Shown piece by piece: positions 1-9,730 of a stretch of 9,730 nt of DNA. The stretch covers positions 1 through 9,730 of IMG/VR virus record IMGVR_UViG_3300018478_000064; one strand, given 5' to 3'. Each line of letters begins with the position of its first letter. Within the stretch, counting starts at the first letter, position 1. A program made the translations under genes and the position numbers. The DNA comes from a virus. Taxonomy: Duplodnaviria; Heunggongvirae; Uroviricota; Caudoviricetes. The notes beneath the pieces are model-generated. The model searched no databases. It was not told the origin of the DNA and worked only from the letters and a program-made list of their open reading frames with translations.

Positions 1-924
1 AACTCCATTAACTTTTATTTGAACTTCTCCTGATGCCGGAAGATTTACTTTCAAAGAGATAACCCATGGTTGTTTCGACGTATTTGTGTACGTGATTCCA
101 GGATACTTATCTGTGACGATCTGATACGTTTGATCTGTACCGATTAACTGAGACGCTGTTGCTAACGCGACAACACTGTCACTCTGTGCATGTCGCATAT
201 ATGGTTTTGTTGCATCATTTCTACTAAAACCAATGACACTGGCTCCATCACCAGTGACCATATCATCCAACTCTAGGTATTGGATAACATCATGAATACT
301 AGACTTACCGATGATATCTCGTCCTACCTTCGTAAAATCGGTAAGGTCTGCACTATTTTCATTGTTGAAATATGGTAGTTTATTAGTTGTTGCGATCAAA
401 TTCGCAAGAGCACTCAAAGTGTCATTCGAATCCTGCTTTTCATCTAAAGCAGTGCTTAATTCCTCTTGTGTAGTCAACAAAATTACAGTGTCTGTATCTT
501 GATGCCTGAAATACGGTTTATTTATAACACCTTTACTAAAACCAATGACATTGGCTCCATCACCAATAACAGCATTGGATATTCCAAGGTTTTCGAGAGC
601 TGTTTTCACCGTGCCGTCCGATTTGATATCGCCAAACGGATTCTTGCGGCTCAGGTATTCAACAGCAAACCCCGATCCCAGCAATTCAACAAAACCGGGC
701 AGATCACCATTATCAAGCACATCCCGTTGCGTTTTATCACTTACAAACTGGGCCAGAGCTGCAGCAATAAAGCTAGCCTGCCGAATAACCTTATTGACTT
801 GCGCACTGGAGGCTTTCCCTGCTGTAAATCCGGATAAAAGCGCGGGCAACGCTTCCCATTCCTCCTGCGATATAACATTGGCATTTCGATCCGTTGCAAA
901 CGCTTTAAAGTCATTTTTCGCCAT
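1..924 (-). CDS. Tail fibre protein, N-terminal part (P2 gpH / Mu gpS / lambda Stf family); 3' end lies beyond the window start
   Basis: Not in the ORF track because it has no stop in the window. Manual minus-strand translation from the ATG at 924..922 (TGATG overlap with the upstream gene stop) is open to position 1, about 308 codons, starting [33 protein letters not shown]. It contains ...[37 protein letters not shown], which closely resembles the conserved P2 gpH segment FPYFTGNDVASLATLTKVGRDILAKSTVAAVIEYLGL as I recall it. Position immediately after the J-like and gp48-like genes fits a fibre gene. Confidence 0.8.
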
Positions 925-1604
925 CAGAGTAATACTCCCCATGCTCCTACATCAAAACCACTGATGAATTCGTTATCCATATCAAAACCAAAAAATTTTG
1001 AGCCTTCCGATGGGGTTTCCACCGAAGGTGTTTCAATGCCACCCGCCCATACCCCGGCGGCTTTTACTGTGAGATACCCCTGTTTAATTGCCGCAATTAA
1101 CTCACGCGATACATCTGAAATATCAGTATCAGGAAAGACCCAGACCGATATCGTCATGTCCTGGTTATCGACTATCTGCATTCGCAGCCCGGATCCTGCT
1201 GTTGCCGCGTCAAGAATTGCCGGAAGCGAATCATTCCGTCCGTCCCAGTTATTAATCGCAATCTTCGCTTTAAGAATGACACGATAAGTTTCATCGCTGA
1301 GATACATGTATCCTGAATCAGGATCGTATGGTCCCTGCCATACCCCCTGATCATATCCAAGACCGTCGGTATCCCAGCTGAAATAGACACCTGAGATAGG
1401 CTGGCTGACAACACGGCTACGTCCGATCCACAATCCAAGAATGTCAAGTTGCACACCAACCGCAGAGTCAATATCAAATGCAGTAATCAGCCCTCTGGTG
1501 GCAGCCGCAACATCAATAAGTGGCCGGGTCATCAGATCAACATGCGCAAGAAATTTAGGTTTGGTGGCGTGGTAGTTCGTGATTAGTTCGGTGTATTTGC
1601 TCAT
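924..1604 (-). CDS. Baseplate/tail protein, Mu gp48 / P2 gpI-like (DUF2313, YmfQ-like)
   Basis: 226-aa ORF. Its start overlaps the stop of the upstream J-like gene (1601..1604) and its stop overlaps the fibre gene start. Size and position between the J-like gene and the fibre gene match Mu gp48 / P2 gpI. Family assigned from position and general sequence character, not from a search. Confidence 0.65.
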
Positions 1605-2800
1605 GACTCCACCGTTATAACGATATTTTCCGGGGTACAGGACGCAGATTCGTTGTATCTGATATCAATGTTTGATGACGACAAAGCCCCCGGGGATTTA
1701 CCAATCGTCAGTTCCTGAATATCGTAATAGCGTGCATTCCCGCCACTCACCACGCCAAGATTCGCCGGTGAGTAAATGCGACTTAAAAGGACCGAATCAC
1801 CGATCGTCAGACTATTGATATAGTCAGAAATAGCCTGCTGGATTTGCTGCCCTATCTGTGATGTATAACCCGTAAAAACTTTTAATTTAATCCGGGCATA
1901 AACAGGCACATCACTGGAACGCGAGAATTTGATTACATGGGGATTGCCGTATTTATCCGGAACCGTAACGGATGTTGTACCGTGAGTGGCTGTCCCCTGG
2001 CCTTTATTTCCTCTGATAGCCTGAGCAATATCCGTCACATCACCGCCATCCACAATTACAGCAACAGAGTGTGGCGGTAACCCGTTACCGTCCTCCGAGC
2101 CAGTATCGTTTTCATAGAGTTTGTGGCGGGTTACACCGGTAACATTAGAAACAGCACCATCCAGTGCTTCAAATGGGGTTATTGATGGCAACGCAACACT
2201 TTGCGACTGACGGATACGTAACTCCGCATCAGTTTCTGCCGGAGTGCCTACAGTAGCTGCAGCAGGATTGGTTACCGAAACCCAGCCACGGGTTGGCGTA
2301 TTAATTTCAGTGATAGTTCCAGCCAGCGCCGCCACTGCACCACTGACGGAACATGTTGCGGTCGCCATCACTGTACCATCCACGCCGACCACCACTGAAG
2401 CAGGCAAACGCCATATCACATTATTACCATCTTTCACGCTGCCATTAATGATGGTTGTTCCGGCAGTTCCTGTAAGAAGCAAATCAACCGTAGAGTTCGT
2501 CGCGCCTTTACGTGAAATACCATTTATTTTCACGTTACTGGTCAGTGCAGCCCCATAGCCGGTTGCCGGTGAAAAACAGTTGTAGACAGTTATCGCCGTA
2601 TTATTGGCATCATGAATCGCCAGCGCCATCAGAGCCACCATCTGGCCGTCTTTGCTGTCCGGTTCGAGGTAGGCATCACTACCATAAATCTGCTGAAAAT
2701 AGCTAATCAGGGTGCTGAGTATCGTCTGATAATCAGGCGCACTGATCCCCTCCGCGGTTACCTTTGCAGATAAACCGAGAGAATCAAGGTTCAGAGCCAT
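1601..2800 (-). CDS. Baseplate J-like protein (Mu gp47 / P2 gpJ / T4 gp6 family)
   Basis: 399-aa ORF whose start shares base 2800 with the stop of the upstream 117-aa gene. Gly/Thr/Val-rich beta-type composition and the position between the gp25-like and gp48-like genes are typical of baseplate J wedge proteins. Confidence 0.75.
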   Translation of the reverse strand: MALNLDSLGLSAKVTAEGISAPDYQTILSTLISYFQQIYGSDAYLEPDSKDGQMVALMALAIHDANNTAITVYNCFSPATGYGAALTSNVKINGISRKGATNSTVDLLLTGTAGTTIINGSVKDGNNVIWRLPASVVVGVDGTVMATATCSVSGAVAALAGTITEINTPTRGWVSVTNPAAATVGTPAETDAELRIRQSQSVALPSITPFEALDGAVSNVTGVTRHKLYENDTGSEDGNGLPPHSVAVIVDGGDVTDIAQAIRGNKGQGTATHGTTSVTVPDKYGNPHVIKFSRSSDVPVYARIKLKVFTGYTSQIGQQIQQAISDYINSLTIGDSVLLSRIYSPANLGVVSGGNARYYDIQELTIGKSPGALSSSNIDIRYNESASCTPENIVITVES

Positions 2801-3153
2801 TACGCCTCCGATGTAACAGTCGTTATTCCATAGAGAGTGTCGATTTCAGCGGAAAACATGACACGTCGGGTCGTGGTATCCACCGTCGTATTGAAAGAGA
2901 GGATTGATTTAACGCCCTGCGTTTCCAGAATGCGTTTTCTGATCGCTAGGTTGTAAGTTTCCGGTTTTTGCCTGCCCAGCACAGACTGGATCCACGGAGT
3001 CCCTTCGGTGGTGTCGAGAAACCATTGCCCATACCACAATTCGAATCGCGTTTTTACCGCCTGCGCCACGGCCTCCGGTGAGTTAATCAGCCAGGTGTCA
3101 TCACCGCTGCCAAAGGTGTAATCGCCATCGGCGTCTTCACGTCTGTATCGCAT
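2800..3153 (-). CDS. Small baseplate protein in the gpW / gp25 / Mu gp46 position (DUF2634 / XkdS-like)
   Basis: 117-aa ORF lying directly between the spike gene and the J-like gene; its start shares base 3153 with the spike gene stop. This position is held by the gp25-like wedge initiator in Mu, P2 and PBSX-type clusters. Confidence 0.6.
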   Translation of the reverse strand: MRYRREDADGDYTFGSGDDTWLINSPEAVAQAVKTRFELWYGQWFLDTTEGTPWIQSVLGRQKPETYNLAIRKRILETQGVKSILSFNTTVDTTTRRVMFSAEIDTLYGITTVTSEA

Positions 3154-3905
3154 CAGTTTACCCCGTCGGTACTGCTTCCACCGCGCTGAACACCGCCATG
3201 AGTGTGCGTATCATCGATTGGCTTGCCGTTAGCCTTCACGCTCCCCAAAAACTCAACAGCACCAGTGATTTTTGAAGCCACACCAGAAACAACAGACCCC
3301 ACCATGCCACCCATCCAGGTTAACAGACCATGAATGGTTACTTTCTCAGAAAAATCAGCCAGAGGGGCAACCACATCAAGACCACCCGGAGCGACAATTT
3401 TAATTTTCCTGGTATCAGGATTAAGCTCAAAATAGGTGCTGCCGTCGTCACTACGCAACTGTGTGGCACTGGTATTAATACCGCTAATCTTCCTCGCCTG
3501 CGACTGGGGACCGACAATACAAAACGCATCCGATAAATCATGCATTCTGTCATCGACTGGCTCCTGTATCCCGCCACTCTGCCACCAGAAATCAATACAA
3601 CGATCGGCAAAAACGACAAGACACTCATCCCCGGCTTTTACCGGAAAAGTCAACGTACAGCCTCCGCCGCGCGGGAATACCACTGGTACATCCACCAGCA
3701 GGGGTAATGTCGTCGACTGGTTGATTCCATTTGAGTCCGGCTCATAGCCTTTAATCGCAGGTTGAACAACCACTGTTACCGTGTCCGGATCAAATGACTG
3801 GACGATGCCGGGCATAGAAACACGCAGCGCCGACATGACAGAGCCAGCAAGTCTTACATCGGCCTGTTCTTTGCTACCAAGTTGAGCGCTTAAAGAAACG
3901 GGCAT
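3153..3905 (-). CDS. Baseplate central spike protein (P2 gpV / Mu gp45-like)
   Basis: 250-aa ORF. N-terminal region (PGIVQSFDPDTVTVVVQ...PVVFPRGGG...KAGDECLVVFADR) looks like the gpV OB-fold spike domain. C-terminus ends ...DDTHTHGGVQRGGSSTDGVN, with an HxH motif of the kind that coordinates iron at the gpV-type spike apex. A GGAGA Shine-Dalgarno sits about 7 nt upstream of the ATG. Confidence 0.75.
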   Translation of the reverse strand: MPVSLSAQLGSKEQADVRLAGSVMSALRVSMPGIVQSFDPDTVTVVVQPAIKGYEPDSNGINQSTTLPLLVDVPVVFPRGGGCTLTFPVKAGDECLVVFADRCIDFWWQSGGIQEPVDDRMHDLSDAFCIVGPQSQARKISGINTSATQLRSDDGSTYFELNPDTRKIKIVAPGGLDVVAPLADFSEKVTIHGLLTWMGGMVGSVVSGVASKITGAVEFLGSVKANGKPIDDTHTHGGVQRGGSSTDGVN

Positions 3906-3925
3906 TCATATGTCTCCAGAAAGTA

Positions 3926-3949
3926 AAAAACCCGCCGGGTGGCGGGTTC
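3926..3949 (-). terminator. Rho-independent terminator downstream of the 79-aa membrane protein gene
   Basis: Plus-strand text AAAAAACCCGCCGGGTGGCGGGTT. On the minus strand this reads AACCCGCCacccGGCGGGTTTTTT: a 6-8 bp GC stem, 4-nt loop and T6 tract. It lies between the 79-aa ORF stop (3965) and the spike gene start (3905). Hand-counted coordinates, +/-2 bp. Confidence 0.6.
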
Positions 3950-3964
3950 ATTATTGAAGTTTCA

Positions 3965-4204
3965 TTACTGCTTGTTTGCTTCTAACGCTTCAGCTATTCG
4001 GCGAAGATACTCATTGTTTTTAAATGAAACCATGATGCACTCAAAGAATATTCGGCAAAATACAGCACATAACAAAAGCACTAAAGCGCCAGCAGCCTTC
4101 CCATTAACAAACGTTATAATGGCGGCAACAACCAGAAGTAACATTGTGATGCCATACAGAACGTTGATGATTTTTGGAGTTATTAATTTATCAAATCCGA
4201 ACAT
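3965..4204 (-). CDS. Small inner-membrane protein, two predicted transmembrane helices and a charged C-terminal tail; accessory (moron) gene of unknown function
   Basis: 79-aa ORF MFGFDKLITPKIINVLYGITMLLLVVAAIITFVNGKAAGALVLLLCAVFCRIFFECIMVSFKNNEYLRRIAEALEANKQ. Two hydrophobic stretches of about 21 residues separated by a short NGKAAG loop, then a charged tail. An AAGGAA Shine-Dalgarno sits about 8 nt upstream of the ATG, a candidate promoter lies upstream and the terminator lies downstream. The region is visibly AT-rich. Confidence 0.6.
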   Translation of the reverse strand: MFGFDKLITPKIINVLYGITMLLLVVAAIITFVNGKAAGALVLLLCAVFCRIFFECIMVSFKNNEYLRRIAEALEANKQ

Positions 4205-4240
4205 GCGACAAATTCCTTATCGTGAAAGTAGAAGTATCAC

Positions 4241-4268
4241 ATTATAATTACGGGTGATTAATCAACAA
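4241..4268 (-). promoter_or_regulatory. Candidate sigma70 promoter for the 79-aa membrane protein gene
   Basis: On the minus strand: -35-like TTGTTG (plus 4263-4268), 16-nt spacer, perfect -10 TATAAT (plus 4241-4246), about 35 nt upstream of the ATG at 4204. A 10-bp perfect palindrome TGATTAATCA (plus about 4255-4264) overlaps the -35/spacer. Hand-counted coordinates. Confidence 0.35.
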
Positions 4269-4343
4269 TCTTTTTGCATGGAAAGGAACCGATGATTTTC
4301 GGCGCATCCATGCTGTTCTGCAGAAGCTGGACGCCAATGTGAT

Positions 4344-4679
4344 TCACTTCACCTTCCGACAATCATACGTCCAGAACTCCCGAGGCTCGTCCATATTTTT
4401 GCGGATAACTTCAACGTTGAGGATCGGCTTGCCATTTCTGGCCACAAAATCCATCCCTAACCAACGCCCATTACCCGGAATCATCCATTGGATGTTCACA
4501 TTGTCATAATCACCTTCCTGTTTGAGAAAGATGATTTTCTGTGTCTCCGGTTTCTGTCCATTAATCCTTGCAAGTCCGTCTTGCGCTTTCCAGTTGATCG
4601 TAAATGGTCCGCAACCGGTATCAGCAAAGGAAATGAAGGAGATACAGACAAGTAAAACTGTCAACAATAGTCTTTTCAT
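4344..4679 (-). CDS. Sec-exported periplasmic protein (signal peptide, two Cys), unknown function; accessory gene inside the tail operon
   Basis: 111-aa ORF. N-terminus MKRLLLTVLLVCISFISFA / DTG has a positive n-region, a 15-residue hydrophobic core and a SFA signal-peptidase I site. There is no lipobox (D at -3 relative to Cys). The mature protein has Cys near each end (DTGC...TYDC). Its start overlaps the hub gene stop as ATGA (4676-4679). Confidence 0.7.
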   Translation of the reverse strand: MKRLLLTVLLVCISFISFADTGCGPFTINWKAQDGLARINGQKPETQKIIFLKQEGDYDNVNIQWMIPGNGRWLGMDFVARNGKPILNVEVIRKNMDEPREFWTYDCRKVK

Positions 4680-5707
4680 GTGTATTTCGCCGCATCAATC
4701 CCTTTCGAGTTAAGCAATTCTTTGCCACCTTTAGCCAGGCAAAGCAGGTCCATATACCACGCCTGCCCTCGGGTGTCGCCAGTATAATCAATGCTGCCCA
4801 CAATGTAATCACCGTCAGTATTAATGCTGGCAGGCTGTGACATGCCTGGCAGACCGTTAACGTAGAGATTACCGTCGCTTTCAGACTCATCCAGTCGTGC
4901 TGGCGATTTCGCTACCTGGTCATTACTCAAAGAGGCACGGTATACAGATGCCTGATCCAGACGAATAAGCCCACCGAGCTTAATATTTGGATTAATCAGA
5001 CATCTGACATTTACGCCAGCTCCCATCGTCTGCTGTGGCATACCGATAAGCCCGGTGTTAGCATTCAACACTGTAGCAACACCAATATATTTATCTTCAG
5101 GAACAATATTTACCAGATTATTTTCATACCACCAGTTAGCTTTACACTGCCCTGCGATATGATTCATCAACCTTGATGTGTTTTGATAAACAACGCGACC
5201 CCGGGGAAATACCGTTTCCGGCATGTCAGGAACTGCGCCGGATTCGATGCCATATGGTTCGAATGATTTCATACCCAGACTGAAAAGATCGCTGTACTTC
5301 CAGCCAGCTGCCACTGTTGTTTTCACACTTGCGTTCAGATGGCCTTCCCAGCTGTCAATACACTGCAACATGATCCAACTGTCTGTGGCATTATCTTTAC
5401 CAGTGACAGTAAAACGGATATCTCCATTGAATATCATACCAACGTTTTCATCAGGATAATTACCTGCTGCATCCGGTTGCCCCTTGTATCCGGCAATAAC
5501 CTGTATACGCGAAAACTCCTTCTGCATAATCCGGTTCTGAGTGGTAGGAGACAGGTTATAAACCTTAAAATTTCCAACGAATCCATTGAATATGGTCGCA
5601 GGCATTTTCTGAATATTGAAAGTGACTTTAAGCTCAGAAATTTTTATCCCGTCGCCCTTATCATCAACAAGCAATAATTCAAAGTGACGCATCCAGTTTT
5701 TCGACAT
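4676..5707 (-). CDS. Baseplate hub-like protein (tentatively P2 gpD / Mu gp44 / T4 gp27-like)
   Basis: 343-aa ORF directly upstream, in transcription order, of the accessory insertion and the spike gene. The N-terminal segment HFELLLVDDKGDGIKISELKVTFNIQK resembles in style the late-control-D N-terminus (LISLTLTDNRGFEADQLDIELDD in P2 gpD). The functional call is positional and tentative. Confidence 0.5.
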   Translation of the reverse strand: MSKNWMRHFELLLVDDKGDGIKISELKVTFNIQKMPATIFNGFVGNFKVYNLSPTTQNRIMQKEFSRIQVIAGYKGQPDAAGNYPDENVGMIFNGDIRFTVTGKDNATDSWIMLQCIDSWEGHLNASVKTTVAAGWKYSDLFSLGMKSFEPYGIESGAVPDMPETVFPRGRVVYQNTSRLMNHIAGQCKANWWYENNLVNIVPEDKYIGVATVLNANTGLIGMPQQTMGAGVNVRCLINPNIKLGGLIRLDQASVYRASLSNDQVAKSPARLDESESDGNLYVNGLPGMSQPASINTDGDYIVGSIDYTGDTRGQAWYMDLLCLAKGGKELLNSKGIDAAKYT

Positions 5708-5709
5708 TG

Positions 5710-6012
5710 TTACTCCGTGAAAACATAGAGGTGTGAGAGCGTTCCAAGATCGAATTGCGTCGGATTCTCCTGCCCTGCCACGTCGCAGAGCACCACCAGA
5801 GAAAAACCCAGATCCATATATCGATACTGTGCCAGCAGGTCAGCCCCCGTAATCATCGGTATACCTGATATAATGGCGGAGCCATTGCTGTCAGCAAGAT
5901 CCAGAACCCAGTACTCGCCTCGCCAGATGACAGACAGGTGATAAACCGAACCGTTAATTGTGGTGGCAAAAGTCTGATTGTCAGCAACCAGTGGGATTTC
6001 TACGGCTTCCAT
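5710..6012 (-). CDS. Small phage tail-operon protein, unknown function
   Basis: 100-aa ORF tightly packed between the 217-aa ORF and the hub-like gene (2-bp gap to the hub start). It has its own Shine-Dalgarno (GGAAGGTG) overlapping the upstream stop codon. Confidence 0.6.
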   Translation of the reverse strand: MEAVEIPLVADNQTFATTINGSVYHLSVIWRGEYWVLDLADSNGSAIISGIPMITGADLLAQYRYMDLGFSLVVLCDVAGQENPTQFDLGTLSHLYVFTE

Positions 6013-6015
6013 GAA

Positions 6016-6669
6016 TCACCTTCCCAGAAATAAATTGCTCAAATACCCATCAACAGTGGAGATACCTTCTTGCGCCATCTGTGGCAGCGATTTCAGAATG
6101 GAATTATTCGGCGGCACCGTTGTTTTGGTGCCTGTATTCTGCACAGCAGACGTTCCGACTCCCTCGGTCATATTGTTTTTCGGGGCAACCCTGACTGACT
6201 GCGTGGAGGTAATAATTACTTCCCTGAGGGTAAGTGTCGCCAGAAGCACATTTTCACTACTCTTATCGGTCGTGACCTCCAGCGTTTTTATCAACATATT
6301 GTTGTAAATACGCTTGCCGGTTGTCACATCGAAAGGAATACGATTCCGCTGCAGGTTAAGCAGTTCCTGATACAGTTCTTTCGGGCTCAGCCCCAGTAAA
6401 CTGGTAGCAGTCAGGTTACTGGCAAAATCAAGCAGCGATCCGCCTCCGGAAAAACCGGTTTCCATCACAACCTCAGAAGGGCGCCTGAATGCGTGTTCTG
6501 ATATGTAACCAGCGCCCTCACCACTGGCACCAGCATTCGTGGGCTGTTCAACCGGATGTTCCGTAATTTCCAGGGCGTCAGTGTGCTTTTCGGTAATAAC
6601 CACATCAGGAATAATGATTCCTATTGAGCGGGTTCGCTGCTGCAGTAAAACAGATAAAAAGTCCATCAC
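6016..6669 (-). CDS. Phage tail protein of unknown family immediately downstream of the tape measure gene (in the position held by Mu gp43 or a distal-tail protein)
   Basis: 217-aa ORF whose start overlaps the tape measure stop as ATGA (6666-6669). No motif I can confidently assign; no LysM signature seen. Confidence 0.6.
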   Translation of the reverse strand: MMDFLSVLLQQRTRSIGIIIPDVVITEKHTDALEITEHPVEQPTNAGASGEGAGYISEHAFRRPSEVVMETGFSGGGSLLDFASNLTATSLLGLSPKELYQELLNLQRNRIPFDVTTGKRIYNNMLIKTLEVTTDKSSENVLLATLTLREVIITSTQSVRVAPKNNMTEGVGTSAVQNTGTKTTVPPNNSILKSLPQMAQEGISTVDGYLSNLFLGR

Positions 6670-8672
6670 GCAGGCCCTTTCAATTGCTGTACCGCCCTGG
6701 CATTTACAGCCCCCTGCTTGTCAGCAATCAGATTAGCCGCCTCCTGAGGGTTGTTAACTCCATGAACATTTATAACAGTCTGCTGGTTAAGGCTGCCAGC
6801 GGCGGCCTGATACGCCAGCGGGCTGTTCCAGTTTGAATAACCTTCTTTGCGCGCCATCGACTGCATCAATGCTCCCATAGTCCGGGGATCTGTAAGATTC
6901 AATATTGCATTCGGTGATACTCCCATCCATTTCGCAACATCCTGTGCATACTTTTTCGGATCGTTGTTATCACCTGCCGGGGCCCAGGTACTGACAATAT
7001 CCTGAATAGTCTGTAATGCCCGTCCGGTTGTTTTCCCGGTAAAGTAACGCATGAGCTGGTTTTTCATCGCCTCCCAGCCCTCAAGCGCTGATTCGAAAAA
7101 CCGGAACCCTTTACCGCTCACCGGGCGAATGTTCCCGGGGTTATTGTTGCGATCAGCAAGAGTGCCGCCGCCGGGGATGTCGGGCTGGACGTTGGAGCCA
7201 TGCACTACACCGTTACTCTGTCCCTGCCGGATAACTTTACCGGGTCCCCCGTGCAACCAGTCCATCCACGCAGGCCATTCACGGACCTCACTGACATCCC
7301 TGCGTCCGATATCTGTTTTTATACCAATAGCAGCCAGCGTGTCGCCGATAATTCGCTTCGTATACCTCAGTGAAGATTTTGCGCTATCGGCAATATTTTC
7401 TCTGTCACTAACAATATAGCCCGCGTAAAGCGCCCACAATTTAAGCCAGGGTGGGACCGGTAAACCTGATATTTTTCCGAAAGCCCCCAGAACCCTGGAT
7501 ACCCAGACACCCGCGATGAATGTACCGAGGATTTCCAGTGCATTTTGCCAGCCGCCAACACCATCTTTTAGTTCCAGAAGGTGATCACGAAGCCAGGTGA
7601 TCGCATCCTTCGCTTTATCTATTGCCGGTTGCCATTTTTCCCAGTCGATAAGACTGTTACCGCCTTCTTTCCATGTTTTGTAGTCTTCCCACAAGAGACC
7701 GAGAGCCACGATCAGACCGGTAATCAGCCCTATAGGTGACATCCAGAAAGTAGAGTTAAGTATCCGCATGGCGACAACCAGACCGCCGATAACCTCTATC
7801 AGGGTTTTCGTTTCGGCATCCAGTTTCCCCCACCACTCGATGATATCTCCGACACCATCGACTATCCGAAATGCTACCCGCCCGACTATCTCACCCAGCC
7901 AGAGGATCCCCTTTATGACCTTTGTGATGGTGACTTCAATTTTGGGAAAATTTTCAATTATCTTTTTGCGCAGGTTATCAATCTGCCCCGCCAGTCCGTC
8001 CGCAAGATTCGATCCGATTTTGTCCCGCGCCATCCCGGCCATTTCACCGAGCGATTTCAGTGAGGTCATAAACCGGTTTGACGATAAGGCAGCCTGATCG
8101 GCATTAAATCCGATCGCTTTCACCATTTCTGAATACTGAGCGCTGAACTGCCCCACTCCGCGACGCATAGCCATCAGGGTATTTTCGTCAATGCCCAGCA
8201 TCTGCGCATACTGGTTAGCCCGGTAATACGGCATGCTGCTGAGTTTCTGTCCAACGCCCGTAAAGATAGCAGCCATGTCACGCATGTTACCGCTGGCATC
8301 ACGGGTCTGTACGCCCAGGCGATTCAGAAAGCCTTCTGCTCCGGGATTGTTACGAATAAACCGGGAGAGGCTTTCCAGAGAAGATCGCGCAGCGTCCACG
8401 CTGCCGCCAACCTGCGAAACCGCATAGCCAATAGACTGAATTCCCTGGACTGTCGCGCCGGTGCGCTGTGACGCCCAGTAAAGATTATCCAGACCGGAGG
8501 CGATCTTAGCCGTGAAGGCCACCACGGACAGCGCGGCTCCTTCAACGGCCAGCCCCATTTTGATGACATTTGCAGTTGTACCGGCGAGGACAGAACCGAA
8601 TTTTTTCGCTCCTGCATCATCCACACTGAAGCCAAGCGAGACGAGGAAATCTTTAATAGTTTCAGCGTTCAT
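6666..8672 (-). CDS. Tail tape measure protein
   Basis: Largest ORF in the window. The track starts it at a TTG (8693, 675 aa). The ATG at 8672, preceded by GGAGAGAGG about 5 nt upstream, is the more likely start (about 668 aa). Ala/Gly/Ser-rich helical N-terminal region, a central hydrophobic block (LIEVIGGLVVAMRILNSTFWMSPIGLITGLIVALGLLW) and a position right after a frameshifted chaperone gene are all typical of tape measure proteins. Confidence 0.9.
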   Translation of the reverse strand: MNAETIKDFLVSLGFSVDDAGAKKFGSVLAGTTANVIKMGLAVEGAALSVVAFTAKIASGLDNLYWASQRTGATVQGIQSIGYAVSQVGGSVDAARSSLESLSRFIRNNPGAEGFLNRLGVQTRDASGNMRDMAAIFTGVGQKLSSMPYYRANQYAQMLGIDENTLMAMRRGVGQFSAQYSEMVKAIGFNADQAALSSNRFMTSLKSLGEMAGMARDKIGSNLADGLAGQIDNLRKKIIENFPKIEVTITKVIKGILWLGEIVGRVAFRIVDGVGDIIEWWGKLDAETKTLIEVIGGLVVAMRILNSTFWMSPIGLITGLIVALGLLWEDYKTWKEGGNSLIDWEKWQPAIDKAKDAITWLRDHLLELKDGVGGWQNALEILGTFIAGVWVSRVLGAFGKISGLPVPPWLKLWALYAGYIVSDRENIADSAKSSLRYTKRIIGDTLAAIGIKTDIGRRDVSEVREWPAWMDWLHGGPGKVIRQGQSNGVVHGSNVQPDIPGGGTLADRNNNPGNIRPVSGKGFRFFESALEGWEAMKNQLMRYFTGKTTGRALQTIQDIVSTWAPAGDNNDPKKYAQDVAKWMGVSPNAILNLTDPRTMGALMQSMARKEGYSNWNSPLAYQAAAGSLNQQTVINVHGVNNPQEAANLIADKQGAVNARAVQQLKGPA

Positions 8673-9302
8673 TATCCTCTCTCCATTTCTCAATGCGCCG
8701 CTGGTTATCCGCTTTTACCGCCAGATGGTCATTCAAGAGAGCAATGTCGTACAAATCGACAGAGCCATCTTTAAGTGCTGTATAAGGAATTAACCCGGCG
8801 TCAACCGGATTGAGAAGGTAGGACAGCCCGTCCGGCAGGCTGTTAAACGTCAGCCCTGTTGCAGGCTCTGCGTCGTGCTGGTAAGGGGTGTAGGCAAAAA
8901 ATTTCCCAGCGAATCGGCGACCACCCGCGCCACCAGATGAAGCATGACCAGCAGGTCAATATCATCAAACATCAGTTCGCCCCGGGTAAATACCGGCACC
9001 CATCCGTCCATATGACGCCGCGATACCACCGCAAGACAGGGATGAATAATCGCATCGGTGTCATCTTCGGTCAGGGAAGACAGTTCCTCAGCGATACGCG
9101 GGAGCATGGTTTCAAACACCGGTTTTAACTGCTCGAATTTCACGGTGTCGATTTTGCCGTCAGCAGGCAAACGGGAGCGAATGCTCCCGAAATCTGACAT
9201 CATTCCTGCCAGCACCGGCAGAAGTTTGCGGGTCACTTTCAGCTGGTCAAAAACGCTGAGTTTTGCCACGCGATATTTCACGCCTTTGATTTCGAATTCC
9301 AT
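8662..9302 (-). CDS. Predicted -1 frameshift fusion product of the tail assembly chaperone (gpGT-like, about 200 aa)
   Basis: My hand translation of the minus strand finds the -1 frame open from the slippery site, through the whole 157-bp gap, to a TGA at about 8664..8662 that overlaps the first codons of the tape measure gene. About 80 codons, ...KFFAYTPYQHDAEPATGLTFNSLPDGLSYLLNPVDAGLIPYTALKDGSVDLYDIALLNDHLAVKADNQRRIEKWREDNER. Confidence 0.5.
8850..9302 (-). CDS. Tail assembly chaperone (gpG-like, short product)
   Basis: 150-aa acidic ORF immediately upstream of the tape measure gene, with a slippery sequence near its 3' end and an open -1 frame downstream. Confidence 0.7.
   Translation of the reverse strand: MEFEIKGVKYRVAKLSVFDQLKVTRKLLPVLAGMMSDFGSIRSRLPADGKIDTVKFEQLKPVFETMLPRIAEELSSLTEDDTDAIIHPCLAVVSRRHMDGWVPVFTRGELMFDDIDLLVMLHLVARVVADSLGNFLPTPLTSTTQSLQQG
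8896..8907 (-). other. Candidate -1 programmed ribosomal frameshift (slippery) site
   Basis: Minus-strand text CTG GGA AAT TTT TTG in the chaperone frame contains G_GGA_AAT (same class as lambda G_GGA_AAG), immediately followed by A_AAT_TTT and T_TTT_TTG, all fitting the X_XXY_YYZ rule. Hand-counted coordinates. Confidence 0.5.
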
Positions 9303-9305
9303 CTA

Positions 9306-9728
9306 TTAAAACTCCCCGAGAACCTGGTCAATCTTGCCGCAGTCAAACACCCACGGCATCGTATTACCGGTTTTAGCGTTGGCGTTATCCGGTTGTTTCT
9401 GGAACGCAACACTGCGTGCCGTGATGATGTCGCCGCTGACCTTGTTGCGGATCACGATAACGTTATTCCCCCATGTGGCAGAAGACTGGCTCTGTGCGTT
9501 ATACGCCAGCGACAATTTTTTATTTGTCGGTGATGTCTTCAGAAGGTTAACGGTAATCGTCCCGCTTTTATCTGCATGGAGACTGTGCATCACTTCGCCA
9601 TCAGCACCGATAGTCATGGTGTTTTTAGGACCGCCCATCGCAACCACAATCCCCTCTTCAGAACTTGCCGAACCGTACCCGAGGTCAATCGAACCGGTCG
9701 GCCCGGTCAGCGTCGCAGTGACATCCAT
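9306..9728 (-). CDS. Phage tail structural protein, possibly tail tube; N-terminus may lie beyond the window end
   Basis: 140-aa ORF whose first ATG is 2 nt from the window end, so the true start and any ribosome-binding site are not visible. Beta-rich composition. Its stop is 4 bp from the chaperone start. In Mu/P2-type operons the tube gene precedes the chaperone. Confidence 0.4.
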   Translation of the reverse strand: MDVTATLTGPTGSIDLGYGSASSEEGIVVAMGGPKNTMTIGADGEVMHSLHADKSGTITVNLLKTSPTNKKLSLAYNAQSQSSATWGNNVIVIRNKVSGDIITARSVAFQKQPDNANAKTGNTMPWVFDCGKIDQVLGEF

Positions 9729-9730
9729 AA

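Follow-up and report, generated by a model that had tools for sequence, protein, structure and literature searches.

The hairpin immediately before the spike gene of this tail module is probably the Rho-independent terminator of a moron, carried within the Q-antiterminated late operon of a lambdoid myovirus-type prophage. All credible genes of the window, by which we mean the whole 9,730-nt stretch of caudoviricete DNA analyzed here, lie on the minus strand. Tube and chaperone genes lead to the tape measure gene (8693..6666), two baseplate proteins, the baseplate hub and a gene for a 111-aa protein; a 139-nt gap, a DUF4282 gene, the hairpin and the spike gene come next, followed by a gp25-like wedge protein, baseplate J, DUF2612 and the start of a fibre gene. 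An earlier, sequence-only reading of this DNA had listed spike, gp25-like, J-like, gp48-like and fibre genes downstream of the hairpin, and that order is correct, with every gene on the minus strand.

The genes on either side of the hairpin can be assigned with some detail. The hub gene (4676..5707, minus strand) encodes 343 aa and matches phrog_196 (baseplate hub, 5e-80) and Pfam E217_GP41. Its stop codon overlaps the start of the 111-aa gene (ATGA), an entry of the ORF list at 4344..4679 on the minus strand whose secreted-looking product matches phrog_3443 (2e-42) and has no Pfam or NCBIfam match. This gene is semi-conserved after the hub gene, with tblastn matches in about 60 of 85 related loci. 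The product has a signal-peptide-like N-terminal segment; it may be a periplasmic protein expressed late, and not a moron. Next past the terminator, the gene at 3153..3905 (minus strand) encodes the 250-aa central spike, recognized by a Pfam spike N-terminal domain (1.3e-44) and a GpV apex motif; a TIGR01644 phage_P2_V match falls below the cut-off, and the RefSeq name is 'membrane-puncturing spike protein'. Its Shine-Dalgarno sequence, GGAG (3914..3917, minus strand), lies 8 nt before the ATG, a spacing kept in most related loci.

The 5' part of the spike gene is itself variable. The first ~66 codons (window 3709-3905) form a separate mosaic block, the match of many relatives to the window being confined to 3708 and below, and at least two alleles exist for the first ~21 residues. 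At the other end of the tail genes, positions 1-583 do not align with the closest relatives, whose match begins at 584. In one of these, L091, the fibre and fibre-assembly genes adjoin a pinE invertase, and window 1-583 may be a variable or invertible fibre segment.

The core hairpin (3931..3946, minus strand), recovered by reading, folding and scanning the sequence, consists of CCCGCC (3946..3941), the loop ACCC (3940..3937) and GGCGGG (3936..3931), and the stem reads as extendable by GAA/UUU to 3949..3928. A T6 U-tract (3925..3930, minus strand; tail score 4.76) lies directly 3' of the stem and is followed by ACTTTCT, the GGAG (3917..3914), ACATATGA and the spike ATG (3905), so that 9 of the first 13 nt beyond the stem are T. 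Hairpin and T6 on the coding strand, at 3946..3931 and 3930..3925, are thus confirmed, and the earlier estimate of about 20 nt to the spike start was right, T6 ending 19 nt from the ATG. On the upstream side, the DUF4282 stop codon TAA (3967..3965) is separated from the stem by 18 nt.

Free-energy scoring, which the sequence-only reading had proposed as a check, agreed with this anatomy. Folded as RNA, 3920-3955(-) reached -16.7 kcal/mol versus -6.1 ± 2.3 for shuffled sequences (z -4.7), and 0 of 200 shuffles folded as well. The core hairpin alone, with six G-C pairs (nine pairs when extended) and a 4-nt loop, gave -11.6 kcal/mol. A scan of the window for terminator-like sites ranked it first, with nine pairs of which six are G-C, and the pattern CCCGC-N3-9-GCGGGTTTT matched the window once and none of 200 shuffles. 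A search of the whole window against Rfam at gathering thresholds returned no match. A d'Aubenton-Carafa-type score, approximate in that the formula was combined with modern energies, was +39.6 on the coding strand. On the plus strand, which had also been described as terminator-like, the same stem is followed by UUCAUUAUU and scored only -1.9 (likewise approximate). The window scan listed no plus-strand site, and we rejected bidirectional termination as weak on account of this poor tail.

Overall, the site combines a G+C-rich stem of ~5-11 bp and a short loop with an uninterrupted U-tract abutting the stem, in an intergenic position shortly 3' of a stop codon on the transcribed strand. Judged by its sequence anatomy, it is a genuine, strong-looking intrinsic (Rho-independent) terminator, situated, as originally proposed, among the late tail genes and just before the spike ribosome-binding site.

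The gene that this terminator follows (3965..4204, minus strand) encodes a 79-aa DUF4282 protein with two hydrophobic segments (Pfam DUF4282 1.2e-10; phrog_12129 8e-48), and its G+C content is 37.5%, versus 44-52% in the neighbouring genes. A literature search on DUF4282 found no papers, and a transcriptome paper on LF82 prophages contained no related prophage. Upstream lies a candidate sigma-70 promoter (4241..4268, minus strand) composed of TTGTTG (4268..4263), a 16-nt spacer and a perfect TATAAT (4246..4241) that ends 36 nt before the DUF4282 ATG (4204). The consensus promoter scan of the window did not list TTGTTG-16-TATAAT because its poor -35 matches the consensus at only 3 of 6 positions. 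Both hexamers are kept in the related locus L003, where changes are limited to the spacer and to downstream positions.

Comparison with L003 delimits the mobile segment. Window 4330..3914, which spans the promoter, DUF4282, the hairpin, T6 and GGAG, is 98-100% identical to L003 despite different flanks: the hub there is only 48% identical, and the spike N-terminus is a different allele. Identity collapses right after GGAG, the last shared element of the cassette. At its left end, 4258..4330 (minus strand) is a remnant 3' end of a second allele of the 111-aa gene (ending in QLLQNSMDAPKIIGSFPCKKIVD and a stop codon), recognizable from the L003 alignments in which that gene is intact. The remnant adjoins the downstream side of the intact 111-aa gene and is, on these alignments, a scar left by a past recombination event; the -35 of the candidate DUF4282 promoter lies within its last codons. 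As judged from the shared segment, promoter, gene, hairpin including its loop, U-tract and Shine-Dalgarno sequence move as one unit, and near-identity between differently flanked copies argues that the terminator arrived with the accessory cassette, as had been supposed. The reciprocal comparison is provided by L004, which has the same backbone (hub 98%, spike 100%) and different cargo. Here the variable segment extends from ~4727 to the 5' arm of the hairpin, so that the last ~17 codons of the hub gene already belong to it.

The DUF4282 gene is thus inserted between genes that are adjacent in related phages, differs from its neighbours in base composition, and has its own factor-independent terminator, which co-transfers with it. 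A moron has a promoter and a terminator of its own, which serve its expression from a repressed prophage, and the first described example, HK97 gene 15, sits within a tail operon (PMC3594210). The unit described here, candidate promoter included, fits this published definition as far as its sequence can tell. Direct repeats flanking the cassette were sought as a transposition signature, which was rejected, the repeats found being only short matches of the kind expected by chance.

To see the hub-spike junction in other genomes, we counted 85 loci. Besides E. coli, whose carriers number roughly 300-1700, eighty loci were drawn, with one genome per species, from Trabulsiella, Erwinia, Pantoea, Yersinia, Serratia, Photorhabdus, Salmonella and other Enterobacterales, and their spike proteins are 48-89% identical. 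Ten E. coli prophages and phages have a CCCGC(C)/(G)GCGGG stem, T6 and GCTTTCTGGAG about 20 nt before the spike ATG, with differing loops and differing cargo (DUF4282, DUF2335 and several unnamed proteins). Across the set, 71 of 85 loci have a terminator-like site no more than 75 nt from the spike ATG. Where the hub-spike interval holds more than 300 nt of cargo the fraction is 59 of 60, the exception (L041) having a 14-nt loop. Relative to a background of 0.0185 terminator-like sites per 80 nt of coding strand, the junction is enriched ~45-fold across the 85 loci.

A terminator is also present in about nine short gene-free gaps of 38-86 nt (L023, L030, L066, L068, L070, L071, L078, L079 and L082) and beside cargo genes encoded on the opposite strand (L026, L032, L038, L045, L057, L072 and L077). 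The hairpin is therefore not only a cargo gene's own terminator. Loci whose hub or 111-aa gene runs up to or into the spike gene lack it (L020, L021, L025, L063, L064, L081, L085, L087 and L089). Hub and spike genes overlap in L020, L021, L025, L063, L064, L081 and L087, and the gap from the 111-aa gene to the spike gene is 10-12 nt in L085, L088 and L089.

Stems of the CCCGC/GCGGG type are a common enterobacterial terminator design, exemplified by the trp terminator, so likeness of the stem alone is no proof of common descent. An alignment of 67 distinct hairpins had 95.7% of its cells paired, with four of seven pairs changed on both sides (e.g. C-G to U-A, G-C to A-U). Covariation as high as that observed occurred in 0 of 500 shuffles, and the loops are free to vary. 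The constant position of the terminator at the junction does show selection. At the hub-spike cargo site, a terminator ahead of the spike gene is a fixed feature that depends neither on genus nor on the kind of cargo, and viewing the hairpin as a peculiarity of one cassette, as the sequence-only reading had done, is accordingly incomplete.

Leader type tracks the backbone lineage. Loops vary both within cargo families and within backbones, and we rejected on these grounds the notions that each cargo, or each backbone, always carries the same loop. Two further arrangements were seen at this junction. In Yersinia artesiana (L035, ~2915-3000), a tandem pair of terminators stands ahead of the spike gene, and its distal member has the E. 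coli-type leader GCTTTCT, which suggests that a cassette was imported with its own terminator beside the resident one. In five of the loci with an opposite-strand cargo ORF next to the junction (L026, L032, L045, L057 and L077), the motif CCTGACATTTGATCAGTAACCCGC abuts the hairpin, ~25 nt upstream; CCTGACATTTGATCAGTAACCCGC could mark that end of a shared reverse-oriented cassette at which its promoter or operator lies.

Counting only the last gene before the spike, the slot holds ~30 cargo families. The hub-spike gaps of L006, L008, L061 and others hold known or candidate genes for defence and addiction. PD-Lambda-1 is encoded in three ORFs (E 5e-83), and further cargo comprises PDC-S57, PDC-S42, YafO/Phd, Fic/DOC, Imm_superinfect (superinfection immunity), HEPN and T5orf172, as well as P22 antirepressor-like and Arc-like genes. 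The slot is thus a place to seek new prophage-borne defence or exclusion genes. A literature search for a published account of a hotspot between hub and spike found nothing specific.

A strong terminator ahead of the spike gene raises the question of how the distal tail genes are expressed. The window itself excludes the early and regulatory region, and the Q context was read from relatives. Lambdoid phages are mosaic, and the closest relatives of this tail module are lambdoid prophages. Identity to the window among complete E. coli genomes is at most 98.7%, and L091 is 98.3% identical to window 584-9730, ~9.1 kb without gaps. L091 encodes int/xis, exo/bet/gam, recE, kilR, a divergent cI/cro-like repressor pair and replication genes. 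A further L091 gene (17754-18308) specifies a 184-aa protein with matches to phrog_753, 'anti-termination protein Q-like' (2e-81), and to Pfam PF06530 (27.5 bits, cut-off 26), the Q21 family (PMC9388147). Its match to the Q21 structure 6P18 is weak (E 0.0016), and one published table entry calls DUF1133 a Q antiterminator by HHpred. Directly after this gene, TTGACT-18-TATATT (L091 18305-18334; 10/12) is the best sigma-70 match of the region, and a hairpin with T5 (18396-18412) lies ~60 nt past it, both identified as consensus matches only. Further L091 terminators, at 19283, 19916 and 21784, lie behind an ORF6N moron, ahead of the holin gene and past the lysis genes. The first of these belongs to a terminator and Shine-Dalgarno unit (19283-19330) of the same design as that before the spike gene, AACCCGCC-ATTGA-GCGGGTTTTG-TTGTTTCTGGAG-8 nt-ATG, which sits after the ORF6N accessory gene, just downstream of the Q gene.

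L092, L093 and L094, whose early regions are of three different kinds, have a Q gene at this position too. L093 has the arrangement of L091, its Q-like protein matching phrog_753 (2e-81) and PF06530 above the cut-off. In L094 the early region is of lambda/P22 type, contains N and nin genes, and comes with a different Q, annotated as such; the Q of L092 is likewise assigned by annotation, and the induced phage vB_EcoM-606R2 has yet another annotated Q. In all four close relatives (L091-L094), the Q-type gene lies directly upstream of the lysis, head and tail genes, which are co-directional and tightly packed.

Read-through by Q is the standard explanation for the tolerance of terminator-bearing morons in late operons. 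Once loaded with Q, polymerase prevents hairpins from forming in its RNA exit channel and is termination-deficient, and Q antitermination is processive over tens of thousands of nucleotides (PMC9388147). The sequence-only reading had offered three ways out of the apparent block: a leaky terminator, antitermination, or an unrecognised promoter for the distal baseplate genes. The Q-type gene upstream of the late genes in four relatives makes antitermination the best answer, and a Q antiterminator most likely lets late transcription through the hairpin. The last option fails for want of space, since the 19 nt between T6 and the spike ATG hold only the Shine-Dalgarno sequence, with no -10-like hexamer (TTTACT lacks A2), which excludes a promoter for the distal genes downstream of the hairpin. 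Relatives similarly conserve only the Shine-Dalgarno sequence in this interval. Leakiness may occur, but is not needed to explain distal expression. Polarity on essential genes, which had been expected of the hairpin, is unlikely if RNA polymerase is Q-modified, and the same arrangement is found in 59 of 60 cargo-bearing relatives.

We therefore favour the following model for this site, in which a promoter, the DUF4282 membrane-protein gene and the terminator would form an accessory transcription unit between the 111-aa gene and the spike gene. In the lysogen, transcripts from the moron promoter or from stray upstream promoters would end at the U-tract, so that the spike, wedge and fibre genes would be insulated and remain silent. 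During lytic growth, the whole lysis-head-tail string would be transcribed from one late promoter just downstream of the Q-type gene. Q-loaded RNA polymerase would then pass the hairpin as it does tR' and the other terminators of the operon, because its exit channel admits no terminator hairpin. We infer the read-through step from the gene context of the relatives and from the established Q mechanism.

The likeliest alternative, although an improbable one, is that the hairpin is a leaky attenuator of the backbone, at which a constant share of late transcripts would end during lytic growth too. Less of the spike, wedge and fibre proteins would then be made than of the sheath, tube and tape-measure proteins. 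Retention of the terminator without cargo, in gaps of 38-86 nt, and beside cargo on the opposite strand speaks for such a role, and the phage L genome paper lists partial termination among the possible functions of intra-operon terminators. However, the hairpin is missing from lineages whose spike gene directly adjoins or overlaps the hub or 111-aa gene, so that the tail needs no attenuator there. Travel of the hairpin with the cassette, and the description of Q-loaded polymerase as termination-deficient (PMC9388147), also count against attenuation.

Somewhat less probable still is a hairpin that serves mainly as a recombination landmark. The hairpin, U-tract and Shine-Dalgarno sequence (~35-40 nt), together with the 3' end of the hub or 111-aa gene, would be homology arms at which Red/RecET-type recombinases exchange cassettes, and termination would be secondary. 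Breakpoints do fall exactly at these elements, at 4727 and the hairpin 5' arm relative to L004, and at ~4330 and right after GGAG relative to L003. E. coli relatives with unrelated cargo have GGCGGGTTTTTTGCTTTCTGGAG in common, one of the tandem terminators of L035 has a foreign leader, and exo/bet or RecE are encoded by relatives. Such a landmark would nevertheless leave unexplained why the element is always a G+C-rich stem and U-tract with compensatory stem changes, and why terminators are kept in lineages with quite different leaders. No flanking direct repeats were found, and the proposal is compatible with the moron-terminator explanation rather than a replacement for it. Finally, that the hairpin arose by chance or is decaying, and plays no part in transcription, is barely credible given the folding score (z -4.7), the pattern's absence from 200 shuffles, the ~45-fold enrichment over 85 loci and the compensatory changes.

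The pattern at the junction would also suit a further role of the terminator, as a recombination joint. We tentatively raise the possibility that the hub-spike junction of this tail module, which is widespread in Enterobacterales, is a dedicated cargo-exchange hotspot, whose right border, the terminator plus Shine-Dalgarno sequence, does two jobs. One would be insulation, keeping cargo transcription in the lysogen out of the baseplate genes, and the other would be to act as a short homology arm for Red/RecET-type cassette swaps. If this is true, selection on the intra-operon terminators of lambdoid late operons is in part for their use as recombination joints; their roles are called not known in the phage L genome paper. 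The junction offers a natural series, from no gap and no hairpin, through an empty gap with a hairpin, to ~30 cargo families each with a hairpin, which would let the ideas of insulation, attenuation and a recombination joint be distinguished. For annotation, a strong terminator in a string of tail genes should not be equated with an operon end under Q-type late control.

Several known systems resemble this arrangement in part. Phage L and P22-like phages similarly have predicted Rho-independent terminators within an operon served by a single Q-dependent promoter, for which the phage L genome paper proposed partial termination or the stopping of spurious, non-antiterminated transcription. Unlike the terminator described here, the phage L example has no link to a cargo cassette and lies after the procapsid module. 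P22 immI, between gene 16 and the tailspike gene 9, invites comparison in that some slot loci hold P22 antirepressor-like or Arc-like genes. P22, however, is a podovirus with an unrelated tailspike, and immI has its own circuit (mnt, arc, ant); no sequence relationship between immI and the DUF4282 cassette was found. With the lambda late operon (Q, PR', tR'), the relatives share a Q-family gene, a strong promoter match with a terminator a few tens of nucleotides on, and co-directional lysis, head and tail genes with further terminators. In contrast to lambda Q, the L091/L093 allele is a DUF1133/PF06530-type protein, and the tail here is contractile.

A further parallel is provided by the morons of HK97 and HK022, where an extra gene likewise separates tail-operon genes that are neighbours in relatives (PMC3594210); HK97 gene 15, for instance, sits between those for the tail chaperone and the tape measure. 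Shared features are a differing base composition, a promoter (here a candidate) and factor-independent terminator of the moron's own, a small membrane protein as product, and a Q-dependent late operon (here a probable one). The DUF4282 unit differs in its hub-spike position and its protein family, and in belonging to one site that holds ~30 different cargo families across genera. A moron terminator in a Q-antiterminated late operon is an ordinary feature of such cassettes; what this junction adds is a fixed terminator border across genera.
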